A stretch of 64,000 bases of DNA, from assembly GCA_963666515.2 (NCBI GenBank), contig OY762897.2, positions 3,072,001 to 3,136,000 of the forward strand, read 5' to 3'. The position numbers and the translations under genes are program-made. Source of the DNA: Candidatus Binatia bacterium (GTDB lineage Bacteria; Desulfobacterota; Binatia; UBA9968; JAJDTQ01). Position 1 is the stretch's first letter. Each line of letters begins with the position of its first letter. The notes under the pieces were generated by a model, which made no database searches, was not told where the DNA came from, and saw nothing but the letters and a program-made list of their open reading frames with translations. This document shows positions 3,566 through 55,324 of this stretch, in pieces.

Positions 3566-5245
3566 CTACGCCACACGCCTTGAGGCCGCGGCCTCCGTCA
3601 GCGTGGTGGTCGGCGACACGTACTCCAGGTCCGTCAGCACCTCGATGAGCGCGGGGCCGGGGGCGGCAAGGGCCTGCTCCAGCGCCGGCAGGAACTCGTC
3701 GTCGCGGGTGACCTTGAGCCCCAGGGCGCCGTAGCCGTTTCCCAGGGCGGCGAAGTCGGGATTGACCAGGTCGGTGCCGTAGTTCCTGCCGGGGTACTGG
3801 GCCTCCTGGTCCATGCGGATGGTGCCGTAGGAGCCGTTGGCGTACACCATCACGATGATCTTCACCCCGTACTGGCGCGCGGTGGCGATTTCCTGTCCGG
3901 TCATCAGGAAGCCGCCGTCGCCCACGTGGGCGATGACGGTCCGTTCCGGATGGGCCAGCCTGGCGGCCACCGCGCCGGGCACCCCCGTGCCCATGCTGCC
4001 CAGGTTGGGGACGATGTAGGAATCGGCGTGGTCGAATTCGAGGTAGCGCTGCACCCAGCCCCCGAAGCTCCCGGCGTCGTGGGTGTGGATGGTGTCCGGC
4101 GGTACGGTGGCCTTGATGTCCGCCATCACCCGCTCCATGGACACCGCGCCGGTGGGGCGCTCCGGTGGGGTGGCGTAGGCCCGTTGCCGGGCGTGATAGT
4201 CGGCGATCCAGGCGGCGCGAGCCTCGTTGGGGCCGGCGCCGTCGCGTTCCAGCGCCGCGGCCAGGGCCTTGCGCGGGTCGGCCAGCACGGCCATGTCCGG
4301 GCTGAAGTTCTGGCCGATGTTGCCGGCGTCGGCGTCGATCTGAATCGTCGCCAGTCCCGGATGGGGCAGCGTGTAGTTGCCGGACACCTGCTGGTTGAAC
4401 CGGCACCCGACGATCAGCAACAGGTCGGCGTCGTCGCGCACGATCTGCTTGGCGTGGTTGTTGCGGCTGCCGAGGTTGCCGACGTAGTGGGGATGGGTGT
4501 TGGGGAACACGTCCTGGCGCTTGAAGGCGCTCAGCACCGGCATCTGGAACTTCTCGGCAAAGGCCACCAACTCGTCCCGGGCGCGCGCGTATTGAGTGCC
4601 TGAGCCCGCCAGCAGCACCGGCCTTTCCGCCCGGTTCACGCGCTCCACCATTTCGCGGATCAGTTGCGGATCCGGACCCGGCCGGACCGCAGGATAAGGA
4701 CCCACCATGGCGATGTCCGCCTCTTCCTCCAGCATGTCCCGGGGCAGGGACACCACCACCGGACCCGGCCGTCCCGAGCGCGCCACATGGAACGCCCGCG
4801 CCATGATGCGGGGCGCCTCGCGCGGGTCGTTGATCTCGATGACCCACTTGGCGATGCTGCCGAAGAAATGGGTGTAGTCGATCTCCTGGCCGGCCTCCCG
4901 GCCGCGGTGCGACCGCGCCACTTGGCCGATGAGCAGGATCAACGGAGTCGAGTCGTACCTGGCAAGGTGCACCCCGATGCTGGCGTTGGTGGCGCCGGGA
5001 CCGCGCGTGACCATGCACACGCCCGGCGTGCGGGTGGTCTTGCCGTAGGCCTCAGCCATGAGGCAGGCGCTGCCCTCGTGGCGGTTGGTGATGAGGGTGA
5101 TCTCCGGGACGTCCCGCAACCCGTCCAGCAGGGCGATGTAGCTCTCCCCCGGCACGGAGAAGGCGTGACGCACCCCTTCGTTGCGCAGCGACCGCGCCAC
5201 CGCGTGGCCTCCCGACATCCTGCGGCTCTGCTGATCGACGCTCAC
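3566..5245 (-). CDS. Thiamine pyrophosphate-dependent enzyme (acetolactate synthase large subunit-like)
   Basis: VPGESY, RHEGSA, TRGPGATN, GRPGPV and TPP motif GDGGFLM...N. Confidence 0.9.
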   Translation of the reverse strand: MSVDQQSRRMSGGHAVARSLRNEGVRHAFSVPGESYIALLDGLRDVPEITLITNRHEGSACLMAEAYGKTTRTPGVCMVTRGPGATNASIGVHLARYDSTPLILLIGQVARSHRGREAGQEIDYTHFFGSIAKWVIEINDPREAPRIMARAFHVARSGRPGPVVVSLPRDMLEEEADIAMVGPYPAVRPGPDPQLIREMVERVNRAERPVLLAGSGTQYARARDELVAFAEKFQMPVLSAFKRQDVFPNTHPHYVGNLGSRNNHAKQIVRDDADLLLIVGCRFNQQVSGNYTLPHPGLATIQIDADAGNIGQNFSPDMAVLADPRKALAAALERDGAGPNEARAAWIADYHARQRAYATPPERPTGAVSMERVMADIKATVPPDTIHTHDAGSFGGWVQRYLEFDHADSYIVPNLGSMGTGVPGAVAARLAHPERTVIAHVGDGGFLMTGQEIATARQYGVKIIVMVYANGSYGTIRMDQEAQYPGRNYGTDLVNPDFAALGNGYGALGLKVTRDDEFLPALEQALAAPGPALIEVLTDLEYVSPTTTLTEAAASRRVA

Positions 5246-5305
5246 CGGTTCACCCCCGACCCTTCGCAGAGTTCATGGCCGTCCTCCTTGTCGTGTCGTC
5301 ACGCG

Positions 5306-5340
5306 TTGAATCCCCTAACGCATTTGTTGTCATGGGGCAA
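5306..5340 (-). promoter_or_regulatory. 35-bp conserved upstream element, copy 1
   Basis: TTGAATCCCCTAACGCATTTGTTGTCATGGGGCAA; 29/35 identical to 10888-10922; lies upstream of an RBS+ATG stub on the minus strand. Function inferred. Confidence 0.55.
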
Positions 5341-5427
5341 GGCGGGGTGGCTGAGACGGGCTTCCGTTGACTGTGGCGGTGTTTTCCAATATCAACAATC
5401 AAGTCCGTCCATATCAATTCGAACCCT

Positions 5428-7716
5428 ATGAACTCCGCCTTTCTGGACCGCTACATCGAGTTCACGTTGCGCCGGCGATGGCTGGTCCTGGCGTCGTCGG
5501 TGGCGGTGATGCTGGTCCTGACGGCCGGCCTCCAGTTCCTCGACATCTCCAACGACTGGCGCGACATGCTCGACGAGGACAATCCTCAACTCGTCGCATA
5601 CGACGCCCTGGAGGACACCTACACGGCCACCAATGCGGCGGTGATCGCGGTGGCGCCCAAGGGCGGGTCGGTATTCACCCGCGAGGCCCTCGGAGCCATC
5701 GAGGAGCTGACGGAGGCCGCGTGGGAGGTGCCCTTTTCCAGCCGGGTCGACTCCCTTGTCAACTACAACCACAGTGAGGCGGTCGAGGACGACCTGAACG
5801 TCGAACGGCTCGTGGACGACGCCGCATCGCTCAGCGATGAAGACCTCGCGCGGATCAAGAAGATCGCGTTGGGCGAGCCCAGCGTCGCCGGCCGTCTCGT
5901 CTCCCACGACGGGCGCGTTGCCGGACTGGTGATCAACTTTACCTTGCCCGAGCATTCGGACGCCGCGGAGATCGAGACCTACCACTATCTCCGCGGCCTC
6001 CTGGACAAGGCCCGGGCCGCCCACCCGGATATCGACTATCACGTGACCGGCAACGTCTTCGTGAACCAAGTCCTGACGGAGGCGGCCCAGGACGACATGG
6101 GAATTCTAGCGCCCGCCGCCTTCCTGGTCATCATCCTGGTCGGCGCCTTCCTGCTGCGCTCCCTGTCCGGCACACTGTGCATCGTCATTCTGCTCATCTT
6201 CGTGGTCGCGTCCACCATGGGCGTCATCGGCTGGGCCGGATTGCTGCTCAACGCCGCCAACTCCGGCATTCCCCTCATCATCATGACCCTGGCCATCTGC
6301 GACTCGGTCCACATCATCGGGACCATCAACTCCGGCATGGGCCGGGGTCTGGACCGGGACGCGGCGATTGCCGAATCGCTGCGGGACAACGCATGGCCCA
6401 TCTTCCTCACGACGGCCACGACGATGATCGGGTTCCTCAGCATGAACGCTTCGGACTCGCCGCCCTTTCGGATCCTCGGCAACCTGGTGGCGGTCGGCAT
6501 GCTGTTCGCCTACGTGTATTCCATGACGCTTCTGCCCGCGCTGCTGGCGGTGCTGCCGTTGCGCGGGCGCGCCGCGCGCGCCGGGGGTTCCGCCTTCTTC
6601 GACCGCCTCGGCGCCTTCGTGGTGGCGCGCCGCACGCTCCTGCTCTGGTCCGTGGCCGCAGTGGCGGTCGCCCTGGTGGCCGGCGTGCCCCGCGTCGAGC
6701 TGACGGACAACTGGACCACCCATCTGGACAAGCGTTACGAGTTCCGGCGCGACACCGACTTCGTCATCGAGAACCTGACCGGCGTGGAAACGCTGGAGTA
6801 CAGCCTGGACGCCGGGCGCGACGGCGGCATCACCGATCCCGACTATCTGCGCAAGGTCGACGCTTTCGCCGAATGGTACCGCGCCCAGCCGGAAGTGGCG
6901 CACGTCCAGGTGTTCTCGGACATCATGAAGCGCCTCAACAAGAACATGCACGGCGACGATCCGGCCTTCTACCGGGTGCCCGAAGACTCCCGGCTCGCCG
7001 CGCAGTACCTGCTGCTCTACGAGCTTTCGGTCCCCTTCGGCATGGACCTCAACAACCGCATCAACGTCGCCAAGTCGGCGACGCGCATGACCGTCACGCT
7101 CGCGAGGCTTAAGTCCGAGGAGCTGCGCGCGCTCGAAGTGCGCGGTCAGGACTGGCTCCGCGCCAACGCGCCCGACCTGGCGCGCGAGGCTTCGGGCTAC
7201 AGCCTCGTCTTCGCCCACCTGGCCATACGGAACACCCTGAGCATGTTGTGGGGCACGGTGACCGGCATGATCGTCATCTCGCTCATCCTCATCGGGATCT
7301 TCAGAAGCGTGCGCTTCGGCCTCATGAGCCTCGTGCCCAACCTCATCCCCTCGGCCATGGCCTTCGGCGTCTGGGGCTATCTGTACAGCGAGGTTGGGCC
7401 GGCCGGTTCCCTCGTCACCGCCATCGCCTTCGGCACCGTCGTCGACGACACGATCCACATCATGGCCAAGTACCTGAAGGCGCGTCGCGACGGCCTTCCC
7501 TCGCCCGAAGCGGTGCGCTACAGCTTCAATTCCGTAGGGGGCGCGTGCTTCACCACGACCATGATGCTGGTGCTGGGCTTCCTGGTATTCGCTACTTCGG
7601 GATTCGCCATCAGTTGGATGCTCGGCCTCCTGGTCGCGCTCACGCTCGGCTTCGCGCTGTTCCTCGATCTTCTGCTCCTGCCGCCCTTGCTGATGGCCAT
7701 CGACCGGAAGACCTGA
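5428..7716 (+). CDS. MMPL/RND-family lipid transporter (HpnN/BstA-like superfamily)
   Basis: Two repeats of TM + large periplasmic loop + 5 TM; TM4/TM10 motifs LAICDSVH and GTVVDDTIH. Confidence 0.9.
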   Translation: MNSAFLDRYIEFTLRRRWLVLASSVAVMLVLTAGLQFLDISNDWRDMLDEDNPQLVAYDALEDTYTATNAAVIAVAPKGGSVFTREALGAIEELTEAAWEVPFSSRVDSLVNYNHSEAVEDDLNVERLVDDAASLSDEDLARIKKIALGEPSVAGRLVSHDGRVAGLVINFTLPEHSDAAEIETYHYLRGLLDKARAAHPDIDYHVTGNVFVNQVLTEAAQDDMGILAPAAFLVIILVGAFLLRSLSGTLCIVILLIFVVASTMGVIGWAGLLLNAANSGIPLIIMTLAICDSVHIIGTINSGMGRGLDRDAAIAESLRDNAWPIFLTTATTMIGFLSMNASDSPPFRILGNLVAVGMLFAYVYSMTLLPALLAVLPLRGRAARAGGSAFFDRLGAFVVARRTLLLWSVAAVAVALVAGVPRVELTDNWTTHLDKRYEFRRDTDFVIENLTGVETLEYSLDAGRDGGITDPDYLRKVDAFAEWYRAQPEVAHVQVFSDIMKRLNKNMHGDDPAFYRVPEDSRLAAQYLLLYELSVPFGMDLNNRINVAKSATRMTVTLARLKSEELRALEVRGQDWLRANAPDLAREASGYSLVFAHLAIRNTLSMLWGTVTGMIVISLILIGIFRSVRFGLMSLVPNLIPSAMAFGVWGYLYSEVGPAGSLVTAIAFGTVVDDTIHIMAKYLKARRDGLPSPEAVRYSFNSVGGACFTTTMMLVLGFLVFATSGFAISWMLGLLVALTLGFALFLDLLLLPPLLMAIDRKT

Positions 7717-7809
7717 CTTCCCTTTCCCGACCCGTTGAAATGCAGTAGTCTTTAGGTAGTCGGCCCGAGTAGCCCCAAGCTACTTGCATGACGTACGGAG
7801 GTGAGGCTG

Positions 7810-9840
7810 ATGGCCCAATCGATGGCGCCCATGGCAAGTCCGCCGACGCTGACTTTGTCCGAAGAACTCATCCTGATGCTCCTGGACGAAGAGACCGGCT
7901 ACTTTCGCCAGGTGCCCGGGTGGAATCTGAACTGCGTGGTCGTCGGCGCCGTGCTTGCGGAACTCTCGCTCCGGTCCCGCATCGACACGGATCTGGAGTC
8001 CCTGACTCTTGAGGACCGGACGGAAACGGGGGACCCTGTCCTGGATTCCGTCCTGAAGGAAATCGCCGGCGAGCCGGAACGACGGAACGCGCGGTACTGG
8101 ATAGAACGGCTCGCTTCCCGCGCGGACGACATCATTGACCAACGTCTGGATCAACTGGTTGATCTGAAGATCCTCGTCCATCACCCCGGCGACTTCTGGA
8201 CGGTGTCTCCCACTGCCTGGCACGTGGGAGCGGACACCGGCTCCGGCGAAAGCACCGTCGTCGAGTACGTCAAGACGCGTATCAGCAGGATCATCTTCAG
8301 CAATGAGATCCCCGAGCCCTGGGACATCATCATCATCTGCCTGCTCGAGACCTGCGACATCACGCGCTTCATATTCCAACTGGATGACGAAACAGAGAAG
8401 CGTATCGAACTGATCTGCAAGATGGACCTGATCGGCCGGTCCATCGCCGATGCGGTCGCCGACAACATGGCCGGCCCGATGCTTCAGCGTCCCGCATTGA
8501 CCAAGACCATTCCGACCGTCCCCCTGCGTCACGTCATCTTCAGCCGTCACCTTCGCAGCGGCAACCTTCCGGCTCTCTTTGCCGAACTCGCAGAGAAGCA
8601 TGGTCCCGTATTCCGGATTCGCCCGCCGTTTGCGGAGCCCATGATCTTTCTGGCCGGACCACGGACAAATCGCTGGGCGCATCGGCACGGACGCATGTAC
8701 CTGAGAGCGAGGGACTACCTGGAGGACTTCGAGAAAGTCTACGGCGCTTCCGGAATACTGCCTGCGCTGGATGGCACGGATCATTTCCGATTTCGGAAAT
8801 CCATGCACCAGGCCTACTCTCGCGGGCGGCTGGCAGGGCGGCTGGATGATCTCTTCAGACACGGCCGAGCCCATATGGCAGGTTGGAAGGTGGGAGACTC
8901 ACTCCCCGCGGTGAAAATGACCCGGCGGTTGAGCAACGCTTCCATCTCTCCGCTCTTCAACAGTGTCGATTCGCAGGATCTTGTCGACGGCATGATCGAG
9001 TACAAGGAACGGGCGCTCTGCACTCACCTCATAAAAGTCCTGCCCAAGTTCATGCTTCATACCCCGGGGATGAAGCGCCGGGCGACCAACATCCAGGAGG
9101 TGCTGGACCGGGTCCAACGCATACATACACCCGCCCAGCGGGCCGGATGTCCTCGGGATTTCGCGGATGACCTGTTGAGCCTGCACAAGAGCGATCCGCA
9201 GTTTCTCCCGGAGTCGAATCTGCGTTTCGCCCTTTCGGCGCCGCTGATTGCCAGCATGTACGTGGGCGACATGCTTGGCTTCGCGTTCTACGCCATGGCG
9301 ACTCAGCCCGGGATGTACGAGAGAATCCGAAGCGAAGCCGATGCCGTCTTCGACAACGGCGACCCGGACAGCGACGCGTTCGACCCCTCCGTGATCGACG
9401 TCACCCGCCGATTCGTGATGGAGGTTGCGCGTCTTTACCCCATCGTCCCGGTGTCGGTTCGAACCGTGATGAATTCGTGCGTTGTCGAGGGCTACGAACT
9501 GCCGGAGGGATCACGGACCTTTATTGCCCAGTCGGCCGCGCACTACATGAGCGACGTCTTCCCCGAACCCTTTTCGTTCGACATCGACCGCTATCTTCCT
9601 TCGCGCAAGGAGCATGTCAATCCCGGATACGCCCCGTTCGGGGTGGGCACGCACACGTGCCTCGGACAAGCGTGGGTAGAACTGTTCATGGCTGCCCACG
9701 TGCTGCTTCTCGCGCATCACTTCACGATCAAGGTGCTTCCCGAGAACCACAGGCTCAAGATCGCCCCGTTCCCCTCGCTGTCTCTGAGCAAGAAGTTCAA
9801 GTTCCACGTCACCGAAAAGAGGCGCGAGATACCTGTCTGA
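7810..9840 (+). CDS. GPP34 (GOLPH3/Vps74-like) domain fused to cytochrome P450
   Basis: N-terminal about 220 aa LTLSEELILMLLDEETG..GAVLAELSLRSRI..TGDPVLD typical of GPP34; C-terminal P450 with EVAR (ExxR), FPEPFSFDIDRY and heme motif FGVGTHTCLG. GGAGG/GAGG RBS precedes ATG 7810. Confidence 0.85.
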   Translation: MAQSMAPMASPPTLTLSEELILMLLDEETGYFRQVPGWNLNCVVVGAVLAELSLRSRIDTDLESLTLEDRTETGDPVLDSVLKEIAGEPERRNARYWIERLASRADDIIDQRLDQLVDLKILVHHPGDFWTVSPTAWHVGADTGSGESTVVEYVKTRISRIIFSNEIPEPWDIIIICLLETCDITRFIFQLDDETEKRIELICKMDLIGRSIADAVADNMAGPMLQRPALTKTIPTVPLRHVIFSRHLRSGNLPALFAELAEKHGPVFRIRPPFAEPMIFLAGPRTNRWAHRHGRMYLRARDYLEDFEKVYGASGILPALDGTDHFRFRKSMHQAYSRGRLAGRLDDLFRHGRAHMAGWKVGDSLPAVKMTRRLSNASISPLFNSVDSQDLVDGMIEYKERALCTHLIKVLPKFMLHTPGMKRRATNIQEVLDRVQRIHTPAQRAGCPRDFADDLLSLHKSDPQFLPESNLRFALSAPLIASMYVGDMLGFAFYAMATQPGMYERIRSEADAVFDNGDPDSDAFDPSVIDVTRRFVMEVARLYPIVPVSVRTVMNSCVVEGYELPEGSRTFIAQSAAHYMSDVFPEPFSFDIDRYLPSRKEHVNPGYAPFGVGTHTCLGQAWVELFMAAHVLLLAHHFTIKVLPENHRLKIAPFPSLSLSKKFKFHVTEKRREIPV

Positions 9841-9845
9841 CGGTT

Positions 9846-10880
9846 CTAAAGTGGCTTGCGAGCCAGGAAGCAGTAGAGCGGCGTGAAGATGCCGGCTCGA
9901 CCGCCCGCGACGTAGGCGTCAGCGGTCCGATCCAGCAGCCGGACGACTTCCGTGGAGCCCTTGGGAAACAGCCGCAGCAATTCGGCCAGCTTCAGGCCCG
10001 CGATGAACGCCTTGCGACCCCAAGGAGTTCTGAGCAAGGTGTTGGCCAATTTCCCGTGCCGGCTCTCCATGGGCTGGTACCACGGCGTGGACGGCCCCTC
10101 CTTGACCTCCCTGTCCAACCCCTCGACGACGTGGAATCCCGCCGCTTCGAGGGCCTGATTCGTCGCCCTCATGGAACTGATGTCTTGCAGCGCAATGCCA
10201 CGCATGAGATCCCGCTTGATGGCCTGGTGCCGGCTGTCGTTCGGATCGAACTTGTCCGTCAGACACATGTCCTGCCCCCAGAACAGGGCTCCGGGTTTCA
10301 GGACGCGGAATATCTCCGCGAACGCACGTTGCTTGTCCGGTGCATGGCACGTTGACTCGATGGCATAGCCTCTGTCGAACGTGTCGTCTTCAATCACCGC
10401 CATGTCCATGAAACTGCAACGCACGTAGTCTACCTTGTGTTCAAGCCCTGCTTCGGCGTTCAGCGCTTTGGCCTTCTCCAACTGGATGGCACTGTTGTTG
10501 ATCCCCACAACCCGGACGCCGGACTCACGGACGACCCGGCGCATCGGGCCGCCGATCCCGCAGCCGACATCGATCACCGTCATGCTCTCCCGCAACTCCA
10601 GCTTGTCGATCATCAATCGCTGGTGCCGGACGATGGAATCCTCCACACTCTCCTGAGGCGTAAGGGGCGCGAAGTGCAAAGATTCGTTCCAACCCCACAC
10701 CATGAAATCGCTGCAAAGGTCGTAGTAGCCTCTTACCGTTTCGGTGTGATCGTACCCGCCAGCGCCGCCGTCCTTCGCCGTCGCCCGGTCGATCCAGCCG
10801 TCGAAGTCTCTCACGCGACGAGGGACGTCGGCCCCCCGGTACGCGTTCTTCAGCGCGTTCGATAATCTGGCGAGTTGCAT
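9846..10880 (-). CDS. Sterol 24-C-methyltransferase-like protein (SMT/ERG6 family)
   Basis: YYD..WGWNESLHFAP, SAM motif IDVGCGIGGP, YAIESTCHAP, C-terminal GGRAGIFTPLYCFLARKP. Start set at ATG 10880; the longer ORF extension overlaps the next gene. Confidence 0.88.
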   Translation of the reverse strand: MQLARLSNALKNAYRGADVPRRVRDFDGWIDRATAKDGGAGGYDHTETVRGYYDLCSDFMVWGWNESLHFAPLTPQESVEDSIVRHQRLMIDKLELRESMTVIDVGCGIGGPMRRVVRESGVRVVGINNSAIQLEKAKALNAEAGLEHKVDYVRCSFMDMAVIEDDTFDRGYAIESTCHAPDKQRAFAEIFRVLKPGALFWGQDMCLTDKFDPNDSRHQAIKRDLMRGIALQDISSMRATNQALEAAGFHVVEGLDREVKEGPSTPWYQPMESRHGKLANTLLRTPWGRKAFIAGLKLAELLRLFPKGSTEVVRLLDRTADAYVAGGRAGIFTPLYCFLARKPL

Positions 10881-10887
10881 GACGTGC

Positions 10888-10922
10888 TTGAACCCCCTAA
10901 CGCGTTTGTCGTCGCGGGACAA
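10888..10922 (-). promoter_or_regulatory. 35-bp conserved upstream element, copy 2 (directly 5' of the SMT start)
   Basis: TTGAACCCCCTAACGCGTTTGTCGTCGCGGGACAA; matches 5306-5340 with six transitions. Confidence 0.55.
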
Positions 10923-10984
10923 AGAGCCCGGCTGCCTGATCCGATGGTTCAACCATTGCGGGAGCATCCTGTACGGCCGGCGAT

Positions 10985-12034
10985 TCAGGAGGGCGTAGCG
11001 CCGCCGGTGTCGCACGGATCGGCATAGAACTGGGCGCAGTAGTGCCTGAAGGGCATGATCCTGCCGTCGGAAGCGCACAGGCGCGGGCGCGATCTATATT
11101 GCTTGCGGCTCCAGATGACCACGTCCTGCATGACGTCGCGCCGTTGCTGAGACGCCATGAACTTGTTCAACAGGGGGGCGCGCCATCGCACCGGCAGGAA
11201 CCCCAGGCCTGCGATCTTCCGCCGCGGCTTGCGTATCTCCCGTATCTGCGAGACCAGTGACAGGTCGATCAGCGTGCCGTCCACCGGGGTCGCCAGCACC
11301 CACAGGCGCGCGTCCATGCCGATGGAGTGCTCACGGATTTCCACGAACGAGTAGCCGAGCCCGAAGACGTGGGCGATGACCGACGTGTCGAAGCTGAGGG
11401 TTGTGACCCTGGCGATGGTTCGCTTCGTCTTGAAGTCGAAACGACTCTCGAGGAAGGGACCGTCCACGGACACTTCCCTGACGGGATTCACGTCATGGTA
11501 GCCGTGGACGTGGCGCAGGTGAGCGAAATCGACCGAATTCTCGGTCGTCTCCTGGGGATGGCCGGGAAAGCGCAGGGTCGTGATCTCGAAGCCGCTCCAA
11601 CCGGCCTGATCCGGCAGCTCCGGGGGCAGGCTCCATTGCGGCTCCCGCCCCCGGAGCCCCCACCAGGCGAAGATCAGGCCGAGAACTTCCCGCGTCGCGA
11701 AGACTCGTAATCTGGCGCTCTTGGGGGGAGGGGCAAAGGGCGTGGCGACGCACTGGCCGGTGGCGTCGAATTCGTAGCCATGGAAAGGGCAGATCAGCCG
11801 GCCGTCGCGGATGCGCCCACCGGCGGATGGCCCAAGATCGGAACCCAGGTGAGGGCAAACCGATTCGGCGACGCAGACGCGCCCGTCCCCGTCACACCAG
11901 ACGACGACGTTCTCGCCCATCCACGTCTTTTGGATGAGTCCGGCCTTTTTCAGCACGGCCTGGCGGGTTGCGACGAAGTACCACCCCTCGGGAAATGGGG
12001 AAGGCAAGGGGGCGTTCGTGGCCGACGTCCTCAT
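10985..12034 (-). CDS. Rieske [2Fe-2S] non-heme iron oxygenase/desaturase, Neverland/DAF-36/KshA-like
   Basis: CPHLG...CPFHG Rieske ligands, ENSVDFAHLRHVH iron motif, C-terminal DVVIWSRKQY..P.L...DG.I..FR...QFY typical of sterol-acting Rieske enzymes. Confidence 0.85.
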   Translation of the reverse strand: MRTSATNAPLPSPFPEGWYFVATRQAVLKKAGLIQKTWMGENVVVWCDGDGRVCVAESVCPHLGSDLGPSAGGRIRDGRLICPFHGYEFDATGQCVATPFAPPPKSARLRVFATREVLGLIFAWWGLRGREPQWSLPPELPDQAGWSGFEITTLRFPGHPQETTENSVDFAHLRHVHGYHDVNPVREVSVDGPFLESRFDFKTKRTIARVTTLSFDTSVIAHVFGLGYSFVEIREHSIGMDARLWVLATPVDGTLIDLSLVSQIREIRKPRRKIAGLGFLPVRWRAPLLNKFMASQQRRDVMQDVVIWSRKQYRSRPRLCASDGRIMPFRHYCAQFYADPCDTGGATPS

Positions 12035-12123
12035 TTGAGTCAATTTGTACCACTGTCGCGCCCGCTGTGCTAGATTGATAGCAAGATTGATAACGAAAGT
12101 TCGCCTGATCGAAGGGAAGGAAC

Positions 12124-12807
12124 ATGCCCGACGGAGTCGAACAGCTCAACGAGGACATCATCGCGGCGGCCAGGATTCTGAGCCGTGAGGGACTAGTGCA
12201 GGGTTTCGGCCACGTGAGCGCGCGGATCCCGGACTCGGACCTGTTCGTGATCACGCCGCGGGTCGCCCTGGAGCTGGTGGAGCCCGGGCAGTTGGTGGTG
12301 ATGAACCTGCAGGGTCAGGTGCTGGAAGCGCCGGCGCCGCCATCCTTCGAGACCGCGCTGCACACGGCCATCTTCAACGCCCGGCGGGACGTGAACGCCA
12401 TCACGCGGATCCACGCCAGGACCGCCAACATCTTCTCGGTGACGGACACGTCCCTGGACGCGGTGCACAACCACGGCAGCTTCTTCAGCGGCGGGGTGCC
12501 GGTCTTCAGGACCATCGACCTCATTTCCACCCGGGAACTGGGCGAGGGCGCGGCCGCGGCGCTGGGCGATGCGGCCGCGGTGCTGTTGCAGGGAAACGGT
12601 CAGGTAACGGTGGGGAGGACCATACCGGAAGCGGTGATGATGGCCATCTACCTGGAGGAAGCGGCGCAGGTGCTCTATGGCGCCATGCAGGTGGGCACGC
12701 CGCGCTTCCTTCCCCCGGAAGCGGCAGGCTCCCGGCAGAAGGAGGCCCTTCCGCCTCCGGACATGGAACGCGCCTGGAACTTCTTCAAGAGCCGGGTGGG
12801 GATGTGA
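12124..12807 (+). CDS. Class II aldolase/adducin family protein
   Basis: GHVSAR, ETALHTAIFNARRDVNAI..IH, LLQGNG. Confidence 0.85.
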   Translation: MPDGVEQLNEDIIAAARILSREGLVQGFGHVSARIPDSDLFVITPRVALELVEPGQLVVMNLQGQVLEAPAPPSFETALHTAIFNARRDVNAITRIHARTANIFSVTDTSLDAVHNHGSFFSGGVPVFRTIDLISTRELGEGAAAALGDAAAVLLQGNGQVTVGRTIPEAVMMAIYLEEAAQVLYGAMQVGTPRFLPPEAAGSRQKEALPPPDMERAWNFFKSRVGM

Positions 12808-13557: not shown

Positions 13558-16287
13558 TTAGCCCTGTTTGTCGGCTTCCTCAACACCTGTTCCGCCCGAT
13601 TCCGTCGCCGTCTCGCCTCCTGCCTTGGCCGTGGCCGCGGGCTTCAATCCAAGCGTCATGATGTAGTCGGTCAGCGCCTCGATCTGCTTCTTTTCGTCCC
13701 CGCCCAGGATGTCCTCGGGTCCACCGGGGTAGAATGACGGCATCTTGGTTCCCGGCTGGAGCGTCTGGGGGTCGAGTATCCACTTCTCGATCCAGTCCGG
13801 ATTGAGGCGCTGGCGGGCGAGGTTCAGATCCGGCGCCCAATCTTCCACCGGCCCTTCGGGCTTCTTGTCGCCCCGCACGTGGCAACTGCCGCACTCGAAG
13901 TAGTCGTCGGAGAACAACGTCCGACCGGCCTCCAGGTAGCCCGCTGGCACCTGTCCTTCGTCAACATGGACATAGGGGATCTCGATCCCGGAAAGGCCCG
14001 CGAAGTAATTCACGAAGGTATCCGCGTGGGGCCCGTCGAAGCCGAAGGTGGGCATGCGGATCTTGAGCCAGGGCCGGATGGCGTTTTCGGGGTTCTGCAG
14101 GAAGCCGAACAGCCAGTTGGCCTGGACCTTCTCGCCCTGGCCGTTGAGCGGCGGCGGCGCCAGGGTCGGGTTTTTCTCGTAGTACTTGCGGACGTACCCG
14201 CCCGTCCCGTCAATCTCGTGACAACCGACGCAGTTGTACTCCTGCACCTTGCGGCGTCCCGCGGAGATCTGCCGCGCCCGCTTGGAGTGATCGGCCTTGA
14301 AGGCCTCGGGCACCTTCCGCTCCACGAAACCGTGCAGCAGCACCCGTAGCGCCTTGATGTCTTCCTCGGGCAGGTCGAAGTGAGGCATCAACTGCTCCAC
14401 CCGCTCGGTGGCGTACACCCTCGGGCTGTGTATCTTGTTGAAGGTCCAGTCCTTCCAGGTGTGCTTGATGCTGGTGTCGTTGCCGAAGAACAGTTCCTCC
14501 AGGGGCTTCGAGCCGAAGGTGGTCAACTCGACGCCGATGCGGGACTCCTTCTCCATCCCCGGGATGTCGTGGCAGCCGGCGCAGCCGTACTTGCGCACCA
14601 GCTTCTCGCCCCTGGCGACGTTGGCGGGCTCCTCCAGGCGGGCCACCACATCGGCGTCGGGCTCGGGCTTCGTGCCCAGCGTCATCAGGTAGGCGGTCAG
14701 CGCCCGCGCCTCGTCCTCGGACAGCCGCAGGCTCGGCATGCGGGTGCCGGGATTGTAGCTCTTGGGATCCAGCAGCCAGTTGTAGGTCCAGCGGGGGTTC
14801 ACCTTGGCGGCGATGTCCTTCAGGTTCGGCACCAGGTCCTTGCCGGCGATGCGGGTGGTGAACTCGTCCTCGGCGAAGCCGTGGCAGCCCAGGCAACCTA
14901 CCGATCGGGCCAGCTCCTCGCCCTTCTTCACCATGGCCGTGTCGCCCGACCGGTACCCCTCCGGCGCGGGATGTTGCTTGAGCCAGGCATCGGCTTCCTT
15001 CCTGGAGACCGACCACAGGTACGCCGCCGCGGCCAGCGCCTCGTCTTCCTTGAAATAGAAGTGCGGCATGCGGGTATTGGGCCTGAACTCCCGCGGGTCC
15101 TCGATCCATTTCACCATCCACGCGGGGTCCAGCTTGGCCTGGACCTTGCGCAGGCTCGGCCCGACCTTGGGGATGTCGCCGTAGCCTTCCACCAGGTGAC
15201 AGCCGGTGCACCCCACCTGCTCGAAGATCTGCTGCCCCCGCGCCACCACCTGGGCGCCTTCGAGGCCGGCCACGTTGAGATGGCAGGTGACACAGTTGGC
15301 CTGCACGTCGTTGTCCTCCAGCAACGGGTGCTCCCAGAACTTCACGTTGCCGTGGGCCTGGGCCAGGCTGTTGACCGCCTCTCCCTGTCCTTCGTGACAA
15401 ACGGTGCAGCCGAAAACGCGCGGCGGATGGGCGGTGTCGCTCAAAAACGTCAGGCGTTTGGGATGGGTGGTAAGGGGCTGCGGCAGGTCGTCGAAGCCGG
15501 CGCGGTTGATGGCGATATGGCACGACTGGCAGCGGTCCACCCGTTCCACCTGCTGGTCGAAGTTGTTGCGGTCGAAGTCCTTGAGCACCACCTGCTGGAT
15601 GCTGGGGATCTTGTAGAGGGTGAACTGCGGGAAGCCGTCCGGGCCTACCGTGACGGTGGCGTTGTCCATCTGCCGCTGCCACTTGCGCTTGTCGCCCTCC
15701 AGCGCATAGAGCTGATCGTCGATCTTCTTGACGCCGCCCTGGACCTCCCTGATCTCCGCCTTGACGTCGGCGCGCTTCTTGCGCGCGGCGTCCAGGGCCG
15801 GCTCGAGGGCGCGTTGCTGGGCCTGCAGCTCTTGGATGTGCCTGCGGTAAGGGCCCGCGTCCTCGCCCAACTGGACCGCGTGGTCGAACTCGTACCAGGC
15901 CTCGTCCAGCTCGCTCTTGACGAACTTGACCTCCTGGTCCGCGTCGAAGTACTCGACCTCGACCCGCTGCTGAAGCTCCCTGAGTTCCGCGAGCCGTGCG
16001 CCCTTCTCGCCGCTCTCGAGGCTCTCCACCTCCGCGGCCCGTTGCTTTACCAGTTCCGCGTACTTCGGGTCCGCGTTCAGGCGCTCCTGCTCCTTGGCCA
16101 ACGCAGCCGCGGCGCGCTCGTAGTCCGTGCGGACGAACTCCGACTGGTGCACCTTCCACACCCGCCTGGTGATGTTGTCGTCGAACACCGCCCACAGGGA
16201 CACCACCACCAGCAGGATGGAGCCTACGAAAAAGACCGTCCCGTAGGACTTCTTCTCTTCATTGGGATCTACGCCGCGAACCGCCAT
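13558..16287 (-). CDS. Membrane-anchored octaheme c-type cytochrome of a Rieske/cyt b complex
   Basis: Eight CxxCH motifs (CQSCH, CTVCH, CVTCH, CTGCH, CLGCH, CAGCH, CVGCH, CGSCH), N-terminal TM followed by a coiled coil, repeated T(R/K)MP axial Met motifs. Confidence 0.9.
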   Translation of the reverse strand: MAVRGVDPNEEKKSYGTVFFVGSILLVVVSLWAVFDDNITRRVWKVHQSEFVRTDYERAAAALAKEQERLNADPKYAELVKQRAAEVESLESGEKGARLAELRELQQRVEVEYFDADQEVKFVKSELDEAWYEFDHAVQLGEDAGPYRRHIQELQAQQRALEPALDAARKKRADVKAEIREVQGGVKKIDDQLYALEGDKRKWQRQMDNATVTVGPDGFPQFTLYKIPSIQQVVLKDFDRNNFDQQVERVDRCQSCHIAINRAGFDDLPQPLTTHPKRLTFLSDTAHPPRVFGCTVCHEGQGEAVNSLAQAHGNVKFWEHPLLEDNDVQANCVTCHLNVAGLEGAQVVARGQQIFEQVGCTGCHLVEGYGDIPKVGPSLRKVQAKLDPAWMVKWIEDPREFRPNTRMPHFYFKEDEALAAAAYLWSVSRKEADAWLKQHPAPEGYRSGDTAMVKKGEELARSVGCLGCHGFAEDEFTTRIAGKDLVPNLKDIAAKVNPRWTYNWLLDPKSYNPGTRMPSLRLSEDEARALTAYLMTLGTKPEPDADVVARLEEPANVARGEKLVRKYGCAGCHDIPGMEKESRIGVELTTFGSKPLEELFFGNDTSIKHTWKDWTFNKIHSPRVYATERVEQLMPHFDLPEEDIKALRVLLHGFVERKVPEAFKADHSKRARQISAGRRKVQEYNCVGCHEIDGTGGYVRKYYEKNPTLAPPPLNGQGEKVQANWLFGFLQNPENAIRPWLKIRMPTFGFDGPHADTFVNYFAGLSGIEIPYVHVDEGQVPAGYLEAGRTLFSDDYFECGSCHVRGDKKPEGPVEDWAPDLNLARQRLNPDWIEKWILDPQTLQPGTKMPSFYPGGPEDILGGDEKKQIEALTDYIMTLGLKPAATAKAGGETATESGGTGVEEADKQG

Positions 16288-16331
16288 TCACTCTCCCTGA
16301 AGCACGCAGAGAATCTATCCGTATCTCGGCG

Positions 16332-16499
16332 TCAAGCCGCCTTGCTCTCCAACACGCGCCCAAGCCAGAACACCGTCACGCCGATGAGGGTCATGATGAT
16401 CTCTTCGGCCATGGCGATGCCCTGAAAGATGCCCACGAACAACGTGAAACCCACACCGGCAAGGCCCAGGGCCTGGACAAGCTTTGCTACATAGAACAT
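16332..16499 (-). CDS. 55-aa two-TM small membrane protein in the bc operon
   Basis: Manual translation MFYVAKLVQALGLAGVGFTLFVGIFQGIAMAEEIIMTLIGVTVFWLGRVLESKAA; ATG overlaps the upstream stop (TGATG coupling); below ORF-track cutoff. Confidence 0.75.
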   Translation of the reverse strand: MFYVAKLVQALGLAGVGFTLFVGIFQGIAMAEEIIMTLIGVTVFWLGRVLESKAA

Positions 16500-17269
16500 C
16501 AGATATTAAGCCAGGGGGTGACCATGATGTACTTGATGTTGAACACCAGCCGCAGGAACATCTTGACCGGAAGCCCCATCATGGTGATGAACAGAAAGGA
16601 GGTGATGGCGAAGCGGACGGCGCCCCACCGGATCATGAACTCCTTGCCCTTGATCCATACGACCCACTTGTAGAACAGCCACGTCGAGAGCACGTAGTAG
16701 ACCAGCACCAGGAACAGGCCGAAGCCCGCCTGGACCCAATAGTCCCGCAGACCCACGATGTAAGGCAGGTCCACGTTGGTCAGGGCCACCACCTTGTGCG
16801 GGTCCCACCGCTGCCAGGGCCAGAACAGGTTCCACCCCGGCCCGCGGAAGAACGTCCCGATGATGATCGTGACCACCCAGAGGACGTGGAAGCCGATGAA
16901 GAAGGTCAGGATCTCCCACTTGCGTTCCTTGAACGTGTAGTAGCCATTGCCCTTGACGTTGATGTCGATGAAGGGGATCACCATCAGGCCGATGATGATG
17001 AAGGTCGGCAGCACCACCCCGGCGTACCAGGGGTCGAAGTACACCAGCATCTCCTGCAGTCCGAGGAAATACCACGGCGCCTTGGAGGGGTTGGGAGTCC
17101 GGGCCGGGTTGGCGGGCTCCTCCAGCGGCGCGTCCACCAGCAGCGACCACAGCGTCATGGCCACCATCACGAAGATGGTCACCAGGAACTCGCCGCGCAC
17201 CAAGTGCGGCCACGTGTGAATCTTGTCGTCGATGACGATCTGCCGGCTTCTTTCCTCGGCCTGAGCCAT
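16499..17269 (-). CDS. Cytochrome b6 subunit IV-like (PetD/QcrC-type)
   Basis: WPHL..., APLEEPANP..TPNPSKAPWYFLGLQE (PEWY-equivalent), extra C-terminal TMs. Confidence 0.85.
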   Translation of the reverse strand: MAQAEERSRQIVIDDKIHTWPHLVRGEFLVTIFVMVAMTLWSLLVDAPLEEPANPARTPNPSKAPWYFLGLQEMLVYFDPWYAGVVLPTFIIIGLMVIPFIDINVKGNGYYTFKERKWEILTFFIGFHVLWVVTIIIGTFFRGPGWNLFWPWQRWDPHKVVALTNVDLPYIVGLRDYWVQAGFGLFLVLVYYVLSTWLFYKWVVWIKGKEFMIRWGAVRFAITSFLFITMMGLPVKMFLRLVFNIKYIMVTPWLNI

Positions 17270-17315
17270 GCGATGGCACCCTTTCCCTTAGCGATGAACC
17301 CGTGCGCCGATGAAC

Positions 17316-18086
17316 CTAGAGCGGAGGGCCGGAGAAGCCGTCCCGGCGGATGCGCCAGAAGTGCACGGCCATGAGCAGGCTGGCCACCAGCGGGATGAAG
17401 ATGCAGTGGAGGATGTAGAACCGCAGCAGCGTGTGCGGACCGATGTCGCCGCCGCCGAACAGGAACGCCCGCGCGTCGTAGATCGGGTTGGCGCCCACGA
17501 ACTCCGCGAAGGGTCCCTCGTGCCCCAGCAGGGGCGTGGCCCGGGCCATGTTGGCGCCCACGGTGACGGCCCAGATGGCGAGCTGGTCCCACGGCAGCAG
17601 GTAGCCGGTAAAGCTCAGCAGCAGGGTCAGCACCAGCAGCAGCACGCCGACGATCCAGTTGAATTCCCGCGGCGGCTTGTAGGAGCCGGTGAGGAACACC
17701 CGGAACATGTGCAGCCACACGAAGATGACCATGGCGTGGGCCGCCCAGCGGTGCATGTTGCGCATCAACATGCCGAAGGGCATGTCGAACTCCAGGTACT
17801 TCATGTCCGCGTAGGCGTACTGCGGCACCGGCCGGTAGTAGAACATCAGGTAGATGCCGGTCACCACCGTGAGCAGGAACATGAGGAAGGTGAGCCCCCC
17901 CATGCACCAAGTGAAGCGCATGCGCACGGCGTGCCTGCGGACCTTGGCGGGATGCAGGTGCATCCACACGTTGCCCGTGACCATCAGCACGCGGTTCCGC
18001 GGCGTGTCCTCGTAGCCGTGCCGGAAGATCGACTTCCAGACCTGGCTCTCGACGACGTCCTTCTTGATCTGTTCCAGGTTGATCAT
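17316..18086 (-). CDS. Cytochrome b6-type (short cytochrome b, PetB/QcrB)
   Basis: WCMGGLT (heme ci Cys position), RNMHRWAAH..HMFRVF, TGYLLPWDQ, RFYILHC...H. Confidence 0.92.
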   Translation of the reverse strand: MINLEQIKKDVVESQVWKSIFRHGYEDTPRNRVLMVTGNVWMHLHPAKVRRHAVRMRFTWCMGGLTFLMFLLTVVTGIYLMFYYRPVPQYAYADMKYLEFDMPFGMLMRNMHRWAAHAMVIFVWLHMFRVFLTGSYKPPREFNWIVGVLLLVLTLLLSFTGYLLPWDQLAIWAVTVGANMARATPLLGHEGPFAEFVGANPIYDARAFLFGGGDIGPHTLLRFYILHCIFIPLVASLLMAVHFWRIRRDGFSGPPL

Positions 18087-18094
18087 GGTCCGTC

Positions 18095-18619
18095 TCAAAC
18101 CTTGAGGATGCTGTTGGGATGCTGCTCGTCCGGTTCCCCGCCCGGCGCCATGCGGAACTTCCTGGCCTTGTCCACCACGAGTTGGCCGTCTTCCGCCACC
18201 GCGATCTCGAAGCGGTCCAGCGGCCGAGGCGCCGGCCCCTCGAAGTTCAGGCCCGACTTGAAGAAGCCGCTGCCGTGACAGGGGCACTTGAACTTGCTCT
18301 CAGCGGAGAGCCAGCGCGGCGTGCAGCCGAGGTGCGTGCACTCGGAGGAGACCGCGTAGAAGCCCGCCTCCTCGCGCACGATCCACACGCGGAAGTCCTT
18401 CTTGAACTTCTCGCTCACCTCGCCGATGGCGTAGTCGGACGGGAAGCCGGCCTTGAACGTGGAAGGCGGCTTGAAGAGCACCCGCGGAAACGCCGACCGC
18501 ATGAAGCCGAAGAGGGAAAGCAGGGAAAACACCCCGAACCCCAGCCAGCCAAGGCGGCCGAAGAAGTCCCGGCGGCTCCAGATGCCTCGCTCGATTTTCC
18601 GTTTCTCGTTCGTAGCCAT
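18095..18619 (-). CDS. Rieske iron-sulfur subunit (PetC/QcrA)
   Basis: Tat motif SRRDFF, CTHLGC and CPCHGS, GPAPRPL. Confidence 0.93.
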   Translation of the reverse strand: MATNEKRKIERGIWSRRDFFGRLGWLGFGVFSLLSLFGFMRSAFPRVLFKPPSTFKAGFPSDYAIGEVSEKFKKDFRVWIVREEAGFYAVSSECTHLGCTPRWLSAESKFKCPCHGSGFFKSGLNFEGPAPRPLDRFEIAVAEDGQLVVDKARKFRMAPGGEPDEQHPNSILKV

Positions 18620-51640: not shown

Positions 51641-51644
51641 TTAA

Positions 51645-51979
51645 GGGATTCGGCGACCCTTCCACTGTTTCAATTCGGTGAGCTTGATCATCAGCGAATG
51701 GAAGAGCAACTTCTGGAGTCACTTCCTGGAGAACTGTTCGGTCTGGTGTCGGAACAGTCAGTCACCCTGGATGCGTTGCGACACATGCTTGCAAATCGGA
51801 CAGCGGCCTGTTTTTCCGATCTTGACCGGGCTATTCTCAGACTCGTCGAGGAAGGAGAGTTCGAAATTCGCGATCCTGACGGCAAGGTGAGATCGAGATC
51901 ATTGAAGCGGTTGAATTCCACGGATCGAGTTGCGTTACCTGCAACGTTGTGGCTTCCGGGGTTACCCCGTCGGTCATGA
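51645..51979 (+). pseudogene. tcmP: TcmP 3' part
   Basis: Removing the IS and one TTAA gives GAC ACA TTA AGG GAT TCG..., in frame with ORF 51698-51979; reconstructed 417 aa. Confidence 0.82.
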
Positions 51980-54900: not shown

Positions 54901-55324
54901 TGGCCTCGCCGCCACTTGCGTCCGGGCCGACAAGCGCAAACTCGCGTAGGTTGGTCACCAGCACCAGCCGGTACCGGCCCCAATAACGGGAGACCTGGTC
55001 GCGCACGCCGGGCGCGTCCAGGTCCTCGCCGGAAGACTTGACTTCCACAACTCCACGCTCGGGAGTCTGGCCCTCGCGTGGCCGGCCCTTCTGCACCTGC
55101 TTCGCCGTGAACAGACCGAAATCGGGATGGCCGGCGCCCTGGTCGGCCAACTCGCCGACGCAGAAGACCTTGGGCTTGAGCGTGGCGCCGACGGCGTTGA
55201 GTAGATTGGCGAGCGGCCCGTAGGCGGACCTTTCCCCGGTCGCACTGCCGGACGCGCGCACCCTCCGCAGGTCGGTGAGGTAAGCCTCGACGGCGTTCGT
55301 CAGCTTCGTATTGGGTCCTGCCAT
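51974..55324 (-). CDS. Type IIG/ISP-like restriction-modification enzyme (N6-adenine MTase + specificity domain, putative N-terminal nuclease)
   Basis: PDF...VEVK at N-terminus, GVWYTP, LDPCCGTG, GNPPY, YRPFD.RW, GGYQVLKKWL. Confidence 0.88.
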   Translation of the reverse strand: MAGPNTKLTNAVEAYLTDLRRVRASGSATGERSAYGPLANLLNAVGATLKPKVFCVGELADQGAGHPDFGLFTAKQVQKGRPREGQTPERGVVEVKSSGEDLDAPGVRDQVSRYWGRYRLVLVTNLREFALVGPDASGGEATLESFCLADSEEAFARGLEKPRAFAAEVGAGLGEYLARALAHRAALAEPKDLAWLLASYARDGLARVEAAGDAPSLKAVRSALEEALGVRFEGDKGARFFRSTLVQTLFYGVFSAWVLWARQTPTPAGGFDWRTAVWHLRAPVLRALFQQLSDPGRLQPLGLVEVLDWTAAALDRVDREAFFARLSEGEAVPYFYEPFLEAFDPDLRKQLGVWYTPTEVVRYMVARVDKALKDDLGIPEGLTAENVYVLDPCCGTGAYLAEVLRRIAANLEGQGLGALTGARVKQAATERVFGFEIMPAPFVVAHLQVGLTMQALDAPLADDETERAGVFLTNALTGWEPRTTKPLPFPELEEERDRAEQVKREKPILVILGNPPYNGFAGMAVEEERELSEAYRRTKRVRRPEGQGLNDLYVRFFRMAERRIAEKTGQGVVCFISNYSWLDGLSFTGMRERYLEAFDAIRIDNLHGDRIVSEYAPDGRTSETVFALRGQSPGIKVGTSIALLLKTKVAASPTFRRLLYRDFHQARAEERRQALLDSLSADLMDGDYSTLVPNIRLGLPFKPMPVSDDWFGWPALPELFPVSFPGVKTSRDGFLVDVDLDRLRARVADYFDVKLSHDEIARRHPSVMRSTARFRAQAVRDELLKRGGPDEAGFVRFAYRPFDNRWLYWEKDTKLLDEKRVDYNPHVFEGNLWIEAREREAKEGYSRGTVVRHLADNLGNGLSSYFPAWLRDDVIGDGQRRPNLSATAERYLDRLGLGVEDLFHHILATLHRPSYREANAGALRMEWPRIPLLGWPDGDVRDAVEVLSESAVWGRELATLLDPDTPVLGVTQGPLRPEIAAIAVPATLAGHNMGPNDFAVTAGWGHYGKDDAVMPGQGHVIERSYTVEEHAALGNALATLGDTTFDVYLNATAFWRNIPTVVWNYKLGGYQVLKKWLSYRERAVLGRPLRFEEVQQFMDTARRIAAISGELTVKVS

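Follow-up and report, generated by a model that had tools for sequence, protein, structure and literature searches.

A GPP34-cytochrome P450, Rieske oxygenase and sterol methyltransferase-like gene module in a cyclase-free Binatia genome may tailor externally supplied sterols

Introduction

Enzymes that modify sterols are found in organisms that cannot make these lipids themselves, as exemplified by the sterol reductases of Coxiella burnetii and the sterol desaturases of Tetrahymena. Lipid export, in turn, is mediated by RND proteins such as HpnN, MmpL and HAE3. Here, a block of four genes related to both activities is described from a 64,000-nucleotide stretch of the genome of a Candidatus Binatia bacterium (GenBank assembly GCA_963666515.2, contig OY762897.2, positions 3,072,001 to 3,136,000; hereafter, the window). 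The block encodes an RND/MMPL-type transporter, a fusion of a GPP34 domain with a cytochrome P450, a divergent relative of the sterol methyltransferases (SMTs) and a KshA-like Rieske oxygenase, and a first-pass annotation of the window had described it as a candidate island for the import and remodeling of sterols. To judge from its distribution, the block represents a single copy of a module that bacteria of many phyla exchange horizontally, and it may tailor sterols that its carriers do not make.

The closest described gene arrangements come from bacteria associated with sponges. SMTs of sponge symbionts were reported in clusters with sdmA/sdmB and an oxidosqualene cyclase (OSC), and 24 were tested (Brown et al., 2023; PMC10070321). 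These clusters resemble the block in the window in that an SMT-family gene is joined to an sdmA-like Rieske gene, in some cases together with an OSC gene, including a fused SMO/OSC, in uncultured bacteria. They were, however, read as de novo pathways, whereas the window's genome and most carriers of the module lack an OSC, and SMTs active in vitro have a motif in Region I that the window SMT does not share. The main text of the article makes no mention of Nitrospir-, Rieske, P450 or transporter. In a second line of work, a P450 domain was reported for 656 of 663 long GPP34 proteins, and these GPP34_L proteins were located in sponge symbionts only and proposed to act as effectors binding phosphatidylinositol 4-phosphate (PI4P; Microbiome 2025;13:4, PMC11706023). 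The fusion in the window shares their two-domain architecture and their spread over many phyla, but instead of standing as a proposed secreted effector, it lies inside a module of sterol-type enzymes; the main text of that article uses none of the terms sterol, methyltransferase and lipid. Finally, clusters of ERG24, CYP51 and LSS were described from ten phyla of Ircinia symbionts, including Binatia, and ascribed to horizontal transfer; homologs of ERG24 and SMT were enriched there, in many cases at dispersed genomic positions (Kelly et al., 2022; PMC9531527). A horizontal spread of sterol genes across about ten phyla is common to these clusters and to the present module. In contrast to them, the window contains neither LSS nor a true CYP51, and its core consists of the GPP34-P450, Rieske and SMT-like genes, accompanied by an RND pump gene.

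Parts of the combination have therefore appeared in print separately (PMC10070321; PMC11706023), and the suggestion that it is not a characterized system holds for the combination as a whole only. A link between the GPP34-P450 fusion and sterol enzymes was not found in the literature searched, on which supplementary gene lists may bear. With Coxiella burnetii and Tetrahymena, the genome shares the presence of sterol-modifying enzymes without a cyclase, including a homolog of the ERG4/ERG24 reductases; the enzymes and organisms differ.

Results

Linkage of the module genes across phyla

An alignment of six fusion proteins identified 549 relatives in a collection of species-representative genomes. 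The best 80 of these 549 loci, comprising 9 in the genus of the window and 71 outside of it, were analyzed, and neighboring genes were identified by tblastn within 10 kb of the P450 gene. Within this set, the fusion proteins are 54-69% identical to the window protein, and the labels of the loci span about ten phyla (Dehalococcoidia/Chloroflexota, Latescibacterota, Gemmatimonadota, Nitrospirales, Acidimicrobiia, Alphaproteobacteria, Opitutales and others). The nine genus loci are labeled Binatia, Deltaproteobacteria or Thermodesulfobacteriota. A KshA-like Rieske gene accompanies the fusion gene in 59 of the 71 outside loci (48 of the 57 that are at least 20 kb in length), an SMT-family gene in 42 (34 of the 57), a flavoprotein gene in 34 (28 of the 57), a fused epoxidase-cyclase gene in five (three of the 57) and an RND pump gene in three (all three among the 57). 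In the genus, the pump is present at all nine loci, the Rieske and SMT genes at eight each and the flavoprotein gene at seven. The first-pass annotation had proposed a neighborhood survey and expected the four genes to occur together; this expectation holds for the P450, Rieske and SMT genes, which are widely linked, but not for the pump, which is mainly genus-specific and is a genus-level addition to the module.

The flavoprotein of these loci has about 452 aa and an amine-oxidase fold (e.g., L016:12049-13407). At 74-83% identity across phyla, it is the most conserved gene of the module, and no NCBIfam equivalog fits it.

Absence of a cyclase and further ties to sterols

The genome of the window (G000; 4.67 Mb on 2 contigs, 98.35% complete) has no match to the families SQHop_cyclase_C and SQHop_cyclase_N (PF13243, PF13249) or to the squalene epoxidase family (PF08491), which extends the lack of cyclase and epoxidase genes noticed in the window to the entire assembly. 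Moreover, searching it with the epoxidase-cyclase fusion protein of a congener revealed no remnant, the only match being to a flavoprotein at 30 bits.

Among the 28 genomes of the genus, cyclase families are matched in three and Sterol_MT_C in 14, with both present in G001 only. In these three genomes (G001, G012, and G021), the sole cyclase match is an epoxidase-cyclase fusion, which is located beside a second GPP34-P450 gene (46-50% identity to the island type) and a second RND gene (45-48% identity). The G001 fusion protein (L018:5039-14236; the loci of G012 and G021 are L019 and L020) has 1114 aa, matches the squalene epoxidase family at 6.3e-25 and the N- and C-terminal cyclase families at 1e-48 and 3e-53, and carries a DCTAE motif, which we take to be of the oxidosqualene cyclase type. 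These loci represent a putative compact sterol synthesis locus in a genus labeled Binatia. Upstream of the G001 fusion gene, a gene for a 2OG-Fe(II) oxygenase is found.

Outside the genus, 50 of the 65 module-bearing genomes of other taxa were classified by score class and open-frame length. OSC-type matches (175-197 bits) were obtained for 11 of these 50 genomes, matches of the squalene-hopene cyclase type only (>420 bits) for 13 and a sub-threshold match for one, and no match for the remaining 25. The resulting figure of 39 of 50 carriers without an OSC-type match concerns genomes whose completeness is not known, which reduces its weight for a sterol-tailoring role.

An additional tie is provided by an unlinked ERG4/ERG24 gene of the window's genome, which matches its family at 119 bits and the solved delta-14-sterol reductase 4quv at 1.4e-34; none of 14 control genomes matches this family. 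Within the genus, 11 of the 16 congeners with an SMT or an island-type P450 have a member of the family, as opposed to 0 of the 12 remaining ones, although the corresponding Fisher p value of 2.5e-4 is overstated because the congeners are kin, and this association counts for less in favor of sterols than the value implies. The gene (G000:C1:1215964-1217025; L110:9842-11029) is solitary, with a gene for a zinc alcohol dehydrogenase on one side and dnaX on the other.

Purifying selection and horizontal exchange

In seven genomes, six of which have no cyclase, dN/dS (the ratio of nonsynonymous to synonymous substitution rates) of all four genes is 0.12-0.32, indicating purifying selection (pump, 0.12-0.16; SMT, 0.19-0.31; Rieske, 0.22-0.29). 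That selection has been maintained although nearly all of these genomes lack a cyclase supports a real unit. Identity to the congener proteins differs between the genes: the pump is 90-96% identical among seven congeners, which is like the flanks, the Rieske protein 82-92% and the SMT 69-94%. The window P450, in turn, is 64-66% identical to six congener copies, which are 83-92% alike mutually. Its synonymous divergence (dS) of 0.77-0.82 exceeds the values of the flanks (0.31-0.55), and in a FastTree phylogeny (supports not inspected) it groups with copies from metagenome-assembled genomes labeled Acidimicrobiia or Chloroflexota, outside of the congener clade. Because of the low identity, the high dS and the branching away from the congeners, the window P450 gene is interpreted as a xenologous replacement, i.e., a foreign copy. 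Cross-phylum transfer is also reflected by SMT homologs labeled Nitrospira, which are 77-78% identical to the window SMT.

The encoded proteins

The SMT-family protein is a class I methyltransferase (Methyltransf_11, 3.9e-17) that ends in a Sterol_MT_C domain (2.5e-17; 63 bits, with the cut-off at 21.7), and its S-adenosylmethionine (SAM)-binding Region II, DVGCGIGGP, fits the pattern DxGxGxxGP. Translation probably starts at the Met codon at 10880, yielding 344 aa, since relatives align from residues 51-67 of the long open reading frame (ORF) and database homologs have 342-344 aa. In a search of solved structures, the best matches of this protein were generic methyltransferases, with no true SMT among them. 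A database protein of 477 aa from a single contig (P0008) combines the C-terminal part of a Rieske/KshA_C protein in frame with a complete SMT of the island type, which may reflect either a natural fusion of the two proteins or an artefact of gene calling at a contig end.

Rieske/KshA oxygenases bind their metals via motifs of the forms CxH...CxxH and DxxHxxxxH, and the corresponding motifs CPHLG...CPFHG and DFAHLRHVH are legible in the translation of the Rieske gene. The protein matches the Pfam families Rieske (2.3e-16) and KshA_C (1.8e-23), being the sole KshA_C match in the genome, and translation probably begins with the ATG at 12034, the start also chosen in the first-pass annotation, because congener proteins align from residue 4. 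Its likeness to KshA and SdmA consists of these two domains and of KshA as the closest solved match (3.3e-21). On the other hand, this match is partial (residues 12-180), the SdmA cut-off is not reached and the island contains no gene for a reductase partner. With KshA as the best and SdmA as a weak match, the Neverland-like label of the first-pass annotation finds no support.

In the fusion protein, GPP34 (1.7e-28; residues 19-220) and p450 (6.9e-35) are recognized by Pfam, and the haem loop FGVGTHTCLG as well as the ExxR motif (EVAR) are present in the translation. Taxadiene hydroxylase, CYP51 and CYP120 are the nearest solved P450s, at 57-74 bits.

The pump matches MMPL (7.7e-33), Patched SSD (8.8e-08) and Sterol-sensing (4.6e-07). 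Like the known RND lipid exporters HpnN, MmpL and HAE3, it has an MMPL fold with a sterol-sensing-like domain, but it stays below every equivalog cut-off: the NCBIfam model HAE3 is matched with 142 bits against a cut-off of 352, and the HpnN models TIGR03480 and NF052374 are matched with 69 and 27 bits against cut-offs of 752 and 1100, respectively. It is therefore an equivalog of neither HAE3 nor HpnN, and the closest solved chains, MmpL4/5, reach only 35 bits. The import role envisaged by the first-pass annotation was not borne out, as the matches are to exporter-type HAE3/MMPL models and sequence cannot tell the direction of transport. Besides the second RND genes at the epoxidase-cyclase loci, a further paralog (62% identity) is encoded beside the hpnCDE genes of the same genome.

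Discussion

Tailoring of external sterols as the preferred reading

The module resides in a genome without cyclase and epoxidase, and most of the 50 carriers of other taxa lack an OSC-type match, which makes the tailoring of externally supplied sterols or sterol intermediates, obtained from a host or from neighboring microbes, the best reading of the data; we consider the chances of its being correct to be about even. The proposal that the genes tailor sterols rather than make or degrade them agrees with the gene content of this genome, and the notion of a sterol island pathway is upheld as far as a conserved, co-inherited unit with several sterol ties is concerned, although only its P450, Rieske and SMT genes are widespread. 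These ties comprise the epoxidase-cyclase fusions at module loci and in congeners, the closeness of the Rieske protein to KshA, the sterol-sensing and Patched matches of the pump and the ERG4/ERG24 gene. A clue to habitat comes from the GPP34-P450 fusion, the hallmark of the module, which has been reported from sponge symbionts only (PMC11706023). In the mechanism proposed here, in which the substrate, every reaction and the transport role are predictions and the gene content, conservation, linkage and distribution are the direct observations, the GPP34 domain would anchor the P450 on the cytoplasmic side of the membrane. Together with the KshA-like Rieske oxygenase, the P450 would introduce oxygen into the rings or the side chain, and the divergent SMT would methylate a side-chain double bond, probably one other than that of the usual delta-24 substrate. 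The unlinked ERG4/ERG24-type reductase would saturate a double bond of the sterol, while the RND protein would carry the lipid from the inner membrane to the envelope or the other way.

Several observations weigh against this reading. The oxygen-activation motif of the P450 I-helix usually has the form (A/G)Gx(D/E)T(T/S), whereas all six aligned members of the fusion family show Y[LV]GD[MA], in which the conserved Thr is absent. A CYP51 identity of the P450 was considered and rejected, as the match of 62 bits covers residues 457-651 only and is no better than that to unrelated P450s. The Rieske protein reaches 37.4 bits over residues 21-180 only with the SdmA equivalog NF052579, for which the cut-off is 600. 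Moreover, the flavoprotein of the module was not found in the window's genome with one flavoprotein query.

A further objection concerns the SMT. A preprint lists 25 residues that are conserved in every SMT working in vitro, including 84-GWGxxFHF-91, T78 and DxGxGxxGP, and places residue 81 in the sterol pocket (10.64898/2025.12.19.695621). Region I of the window protein reads FMVWGWNESLHF at the site of the canonical GWGxxFHF, with GWNESLHF as the motif itself, and if yeast positions are assigned by offset from the motif, DLCSDFMVWGWNESLHF corresponds to S78, M81, W83, N86, and L89. This is a pattern of the entire clade: the motif was located in 45 of 47 island-type SMTs, and all 45 carry M81 and L89, while position 78 is occupied by S (36), N (8) or T (1) and position 86 by G (28), S (13) or N (4). 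In the SMT2 paralogs, by comparison, the motif was located in 8 of 9 proteins, with T78, Y81, and F89 in all eight and GWG in seven, and this canonical-motif paralog tends to adjoin epoxidase-cyclase fusions in other phyla. Since Region I departs from these conserved residues, a desmosterol-type activity of the island enzyme is doubtful, and the M81/L89 pattern of the clade means that no SMT found active in the preprint is of the island type. The island SMT may not be an ordinary C-24 SMT and may act on another olefin position, on another sterol or on a non-sterol substrate. One specific version, namely that the Met81/Leu89 enzymes are side-chain methyltransferases of different regiochemistry (e.g., for C-26/C-27 of delta-25 sterols) that modify sterols of the host in symbionts without sterol synthesis of their own, strikes us as a long shot. 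Methylation of delta-25 sterols at C-26/C-27 is what aplysterol-type sponge sterols need, so that, if this version were true, part of the unusual sponge sterols and of the fossil record would have been made jointly by host and bacteria.

Alternative explanations

A non-sterol substrate would be at hand in the form of squalene. The window's genome contains a row of hpnC, hpnD, hpnE and ispH (G000:C1:3464544-3473925; L011), with HpnE at 398 bits exceeding its cut-off of 283, and the module might tailor such an endogenous acyclic isoprenoid, with the SMT methylating it, the P450 and Rieske enzymes oxidizing it and the RND protein exporting it. The SMT-like triterpene methyltransferases of Botryococcus braunii methylate double bonds of squalene. 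Facing the hpnCDE row is an operon encoding an unknown 417-aa protein, a LolA-like protein, the 62%-identical paralog of the island pump and an MpaB/Lcp-type oxygenase, and the whole looks like a locus for squalene synthesis and export in a cyclase-free genome. The availability of squalene speaks against a sterol substrate, as do the SQS_PSY family matches in 27 of the 28 genus genomes (in tandem in most of the genus) and in 49 of the 50 outside carriers, 25 of which have no cyclase of any kind. The altered substrate-binding Region I of the SMT clade and the amine-oxidase fold of the module flavoprotein, which is also that of HpnE and the carotenoid desaturases, would fit as well. However, SQS_PSY is common in bacteria, and because it is found in 8 of the 14 controls as well as in nearly all carriers, it cannot discriminate between the two substrates. 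In addition, hpnCDE is near-universal in the genus, whereas the island is present in only about half of it, and a squalene substrate leaves the linkage to epoxidase-cyclase genes, the KshA-type Rieske enzyme and the co-distribution with ERG4/ERG24 unexplained. Taken together, squalene tailoring is the main rival to the tailoring of external sterols, though an unlikely one.

Three further explanations are given considerably less credence. According to one, the GPP34-P450 protein would be secreted as an effector, bind PI4P of the host and thereby keep phagosomes from maturing, and the neighboring genes would have no part in this role. The report of the fusion in sponge symbionts only, together with the PI4P binding proposed there by analogy to GOLPH3 (PMC11706023), would favor such an effector, and the window's genome also has a stand-alone GPP34 gene. 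Yet lipid-enzyme neighbors are kept across phyla (Rieske in 59 and SMT family in 42 of the 71 outside loci), and paralogs of the fusion lie directly beside epoxidase-cyclase genes. Furthermore, a P450 needs haem and redox partners of the cytoplasm, neither a signal peptide nor a membrane span was seen at the N-terminus of the fusion when its translation was read by eye, without a predictor, and the GPP34 domain matches Vps74/GOLPH3 at E values of 0.003-0.014 only, a weak alignment in which the Arg that presumably binds PI4P in GOLPH3 is opposite a Val. We therefore judge the effector role very unlikely. A similarly poor chance, if anything a poorer one, is given to the idea that the island is a decaying remnant, left from de novo sterol synthesis after loss of the cyclase and now functionless in this genome. 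Decay does occur in the genus: three congeners retain the epoxidase-cyclase fusion, G021 has only pump fragments at the island site, G012 has a truncated SMT and a partial P450, and gene content varies among the others, with G022, for instance, lacking the Rieske gene. This contrasts with the four intact ORFs of the window and with the purifying selection in seven genomes, six of them without a cyclase; Sterol_MT_C is also far more frequent in the genus than the cyclase (14 versus three of 28 genomes), and the window P450 was replaced by an intact foreign copy rather than lost. Hardly any probability remains for sterol synthesis by the organism itself, either through an unrecognized epoxidase or cyclase or through genes in the unassembled 1-2% of the genome, with the island as the late part of the pathway. 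The completeness estimate is indeed below 100%, and the published sponge-symbiont clusters were read as de novo pathways (PMC10070321), but the epoxidase and cyclase searches came back empty for this 2-contig genome and for 25 of 28 congeners, several of which are single-contig assemblies.

Implications

A sterol-type enzyme set is kept under selection in bacteria without sterol synthesis, which points to a remodeling of host or community sterols, a process outside the de novo model in print. Early animals are traced in the fossil record by side-chain-alkylated steranes, an interpretation that is already made less straightforward by bacterial SMTs. In addition, the GPP34-P450 fusion, a proposed symbiosis effector, gains a candidate biochemical role that is concrete and testable, a divergent SMT clade is singled out, and the genus offers natural comparison sets of genomes with the island present, absent or decayed and the cyclase present or absent.

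Genomic setting of the island

The architecture of the island and of its borders is summarized in Table 1. ORF and Pfam analyses confirmed four intact genes in two convergent pairs with the domains assigned to them by the first-pass annotation, and the stop codons of the P450 and SMT genes are 5 bp apart as stated, the former ending at 9840 and the latter beginning at 9846. The lower GC content ascribed to these two genes proved exact for the sampled lines (32/60 at 8941-9000, against 49/60 at 4201-4260 in the flank) but modest over whole genes (P450, 0.603; SMT, 0.615; TPP-dependent enzyme, 0.693; aldolase, 0.671; window, 0.648); a foreign replacement fits the lower value of the P450 gene.

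Table 1. Genes of the island and its two borders (window positions).
Feature	Position	Strand	Details
RND/MMPL-type (HAE3-like) inner-membrane lipid transporter with sterol-sensing-like domain	5428..7716	+	762 aa; Pfam MMPL, Patched SSD, Sterol-sensing
GPP34-cytochrome P450 fusion (GPP34_L type)	7801..9840	+	679 aa; GPP34 at about residues 19-220, then P450
SMT-family SAM-dependent C-methyltransferase, divergent clade	9846..10880	-	344 aa; longest ORF 9846-11078, 410 aa
Rieske non-haem-iron oxygenase, KshA/SdmA class	10985..12043	-	ORF 352 aa; about 349 aa from ATG 12034
Thiamine pyrophosphate (TPP)-dependent enzyme, left border, outside module	3566..5245	-	Three TPP_enzyme domains
Class II aldolase, right border, outside module	12124..12807	+	Aldolase_II 7.1e-35

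The genes of the TPP-dependent enzyme and the aldolase, the latter being 91-96% identical among congeners, bracket the island in all six syntenic congener loci, within which gene order and orientation vary. Some of these loci additionally contain a second SMT paralog (37% identical), the 452-aa flavoprotein with the amine-oxidase fold, or both, and the G022 locus is without the Rieske gene. In four island-free congeners (G003, G006, G011, and G013), the two border genes are adjacent, and the block is a true insertion between them. Three fragments of the pump gene are left at the island site of G021 (L021:8421-10374), and a truncated SMT gene and a partial P450 gene in G012 (G012:C1:1143186-1144597); both genomes also possess the epoxidase-cyclase locus. 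Alignment of the junction with the empty sites, in which the shared part is the TPP-proximal stretch only, revealed no target-site duplication or repeat. A scan of positions 5100-12300 identified two promoter-like and three terminator-like sites, which is not above the numbers in shuffled sequences, and none between the convergent stop codons.

Concerning the rest of the window, 35 further ORFs between 18119 and 63764 were scanned and none belongs to a cyclase, epoxidase or steroid-degradation family, in accordance with the first-pass annotation. Encoded there are arginine/lysine biosynthesis, molybdenum-cofactor genes, a 2-oxoacid oxidoreductase, a Type ISP restriction enzyme, a transposase and a SAM synthetase. 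At 49730-55324, a DDE transposase (600 aa) lies beside the Type ISP restriction-modification enzyme, which has 1116 aa, and this stretch may have been inserted independently as a mobile or defence element. Directly beyond the island, at 13558-18287, a 909-aa multihaem cytochrome c is encoded beside split cytochrome b genes, a region that is 84-89% conserved in congeners. The stand-alone GPP34 gene of the window's genome (217 aa, Pfam 3e-45; G000:C1:730688-731284, L111:9647-10300) is located beside genes for a DDE transposase and a STAS-domain protein, and in G013, whose island site is empty, a further stand-alone GPP34 gene is found there next to the aldolase gene (L022:5913-6539).

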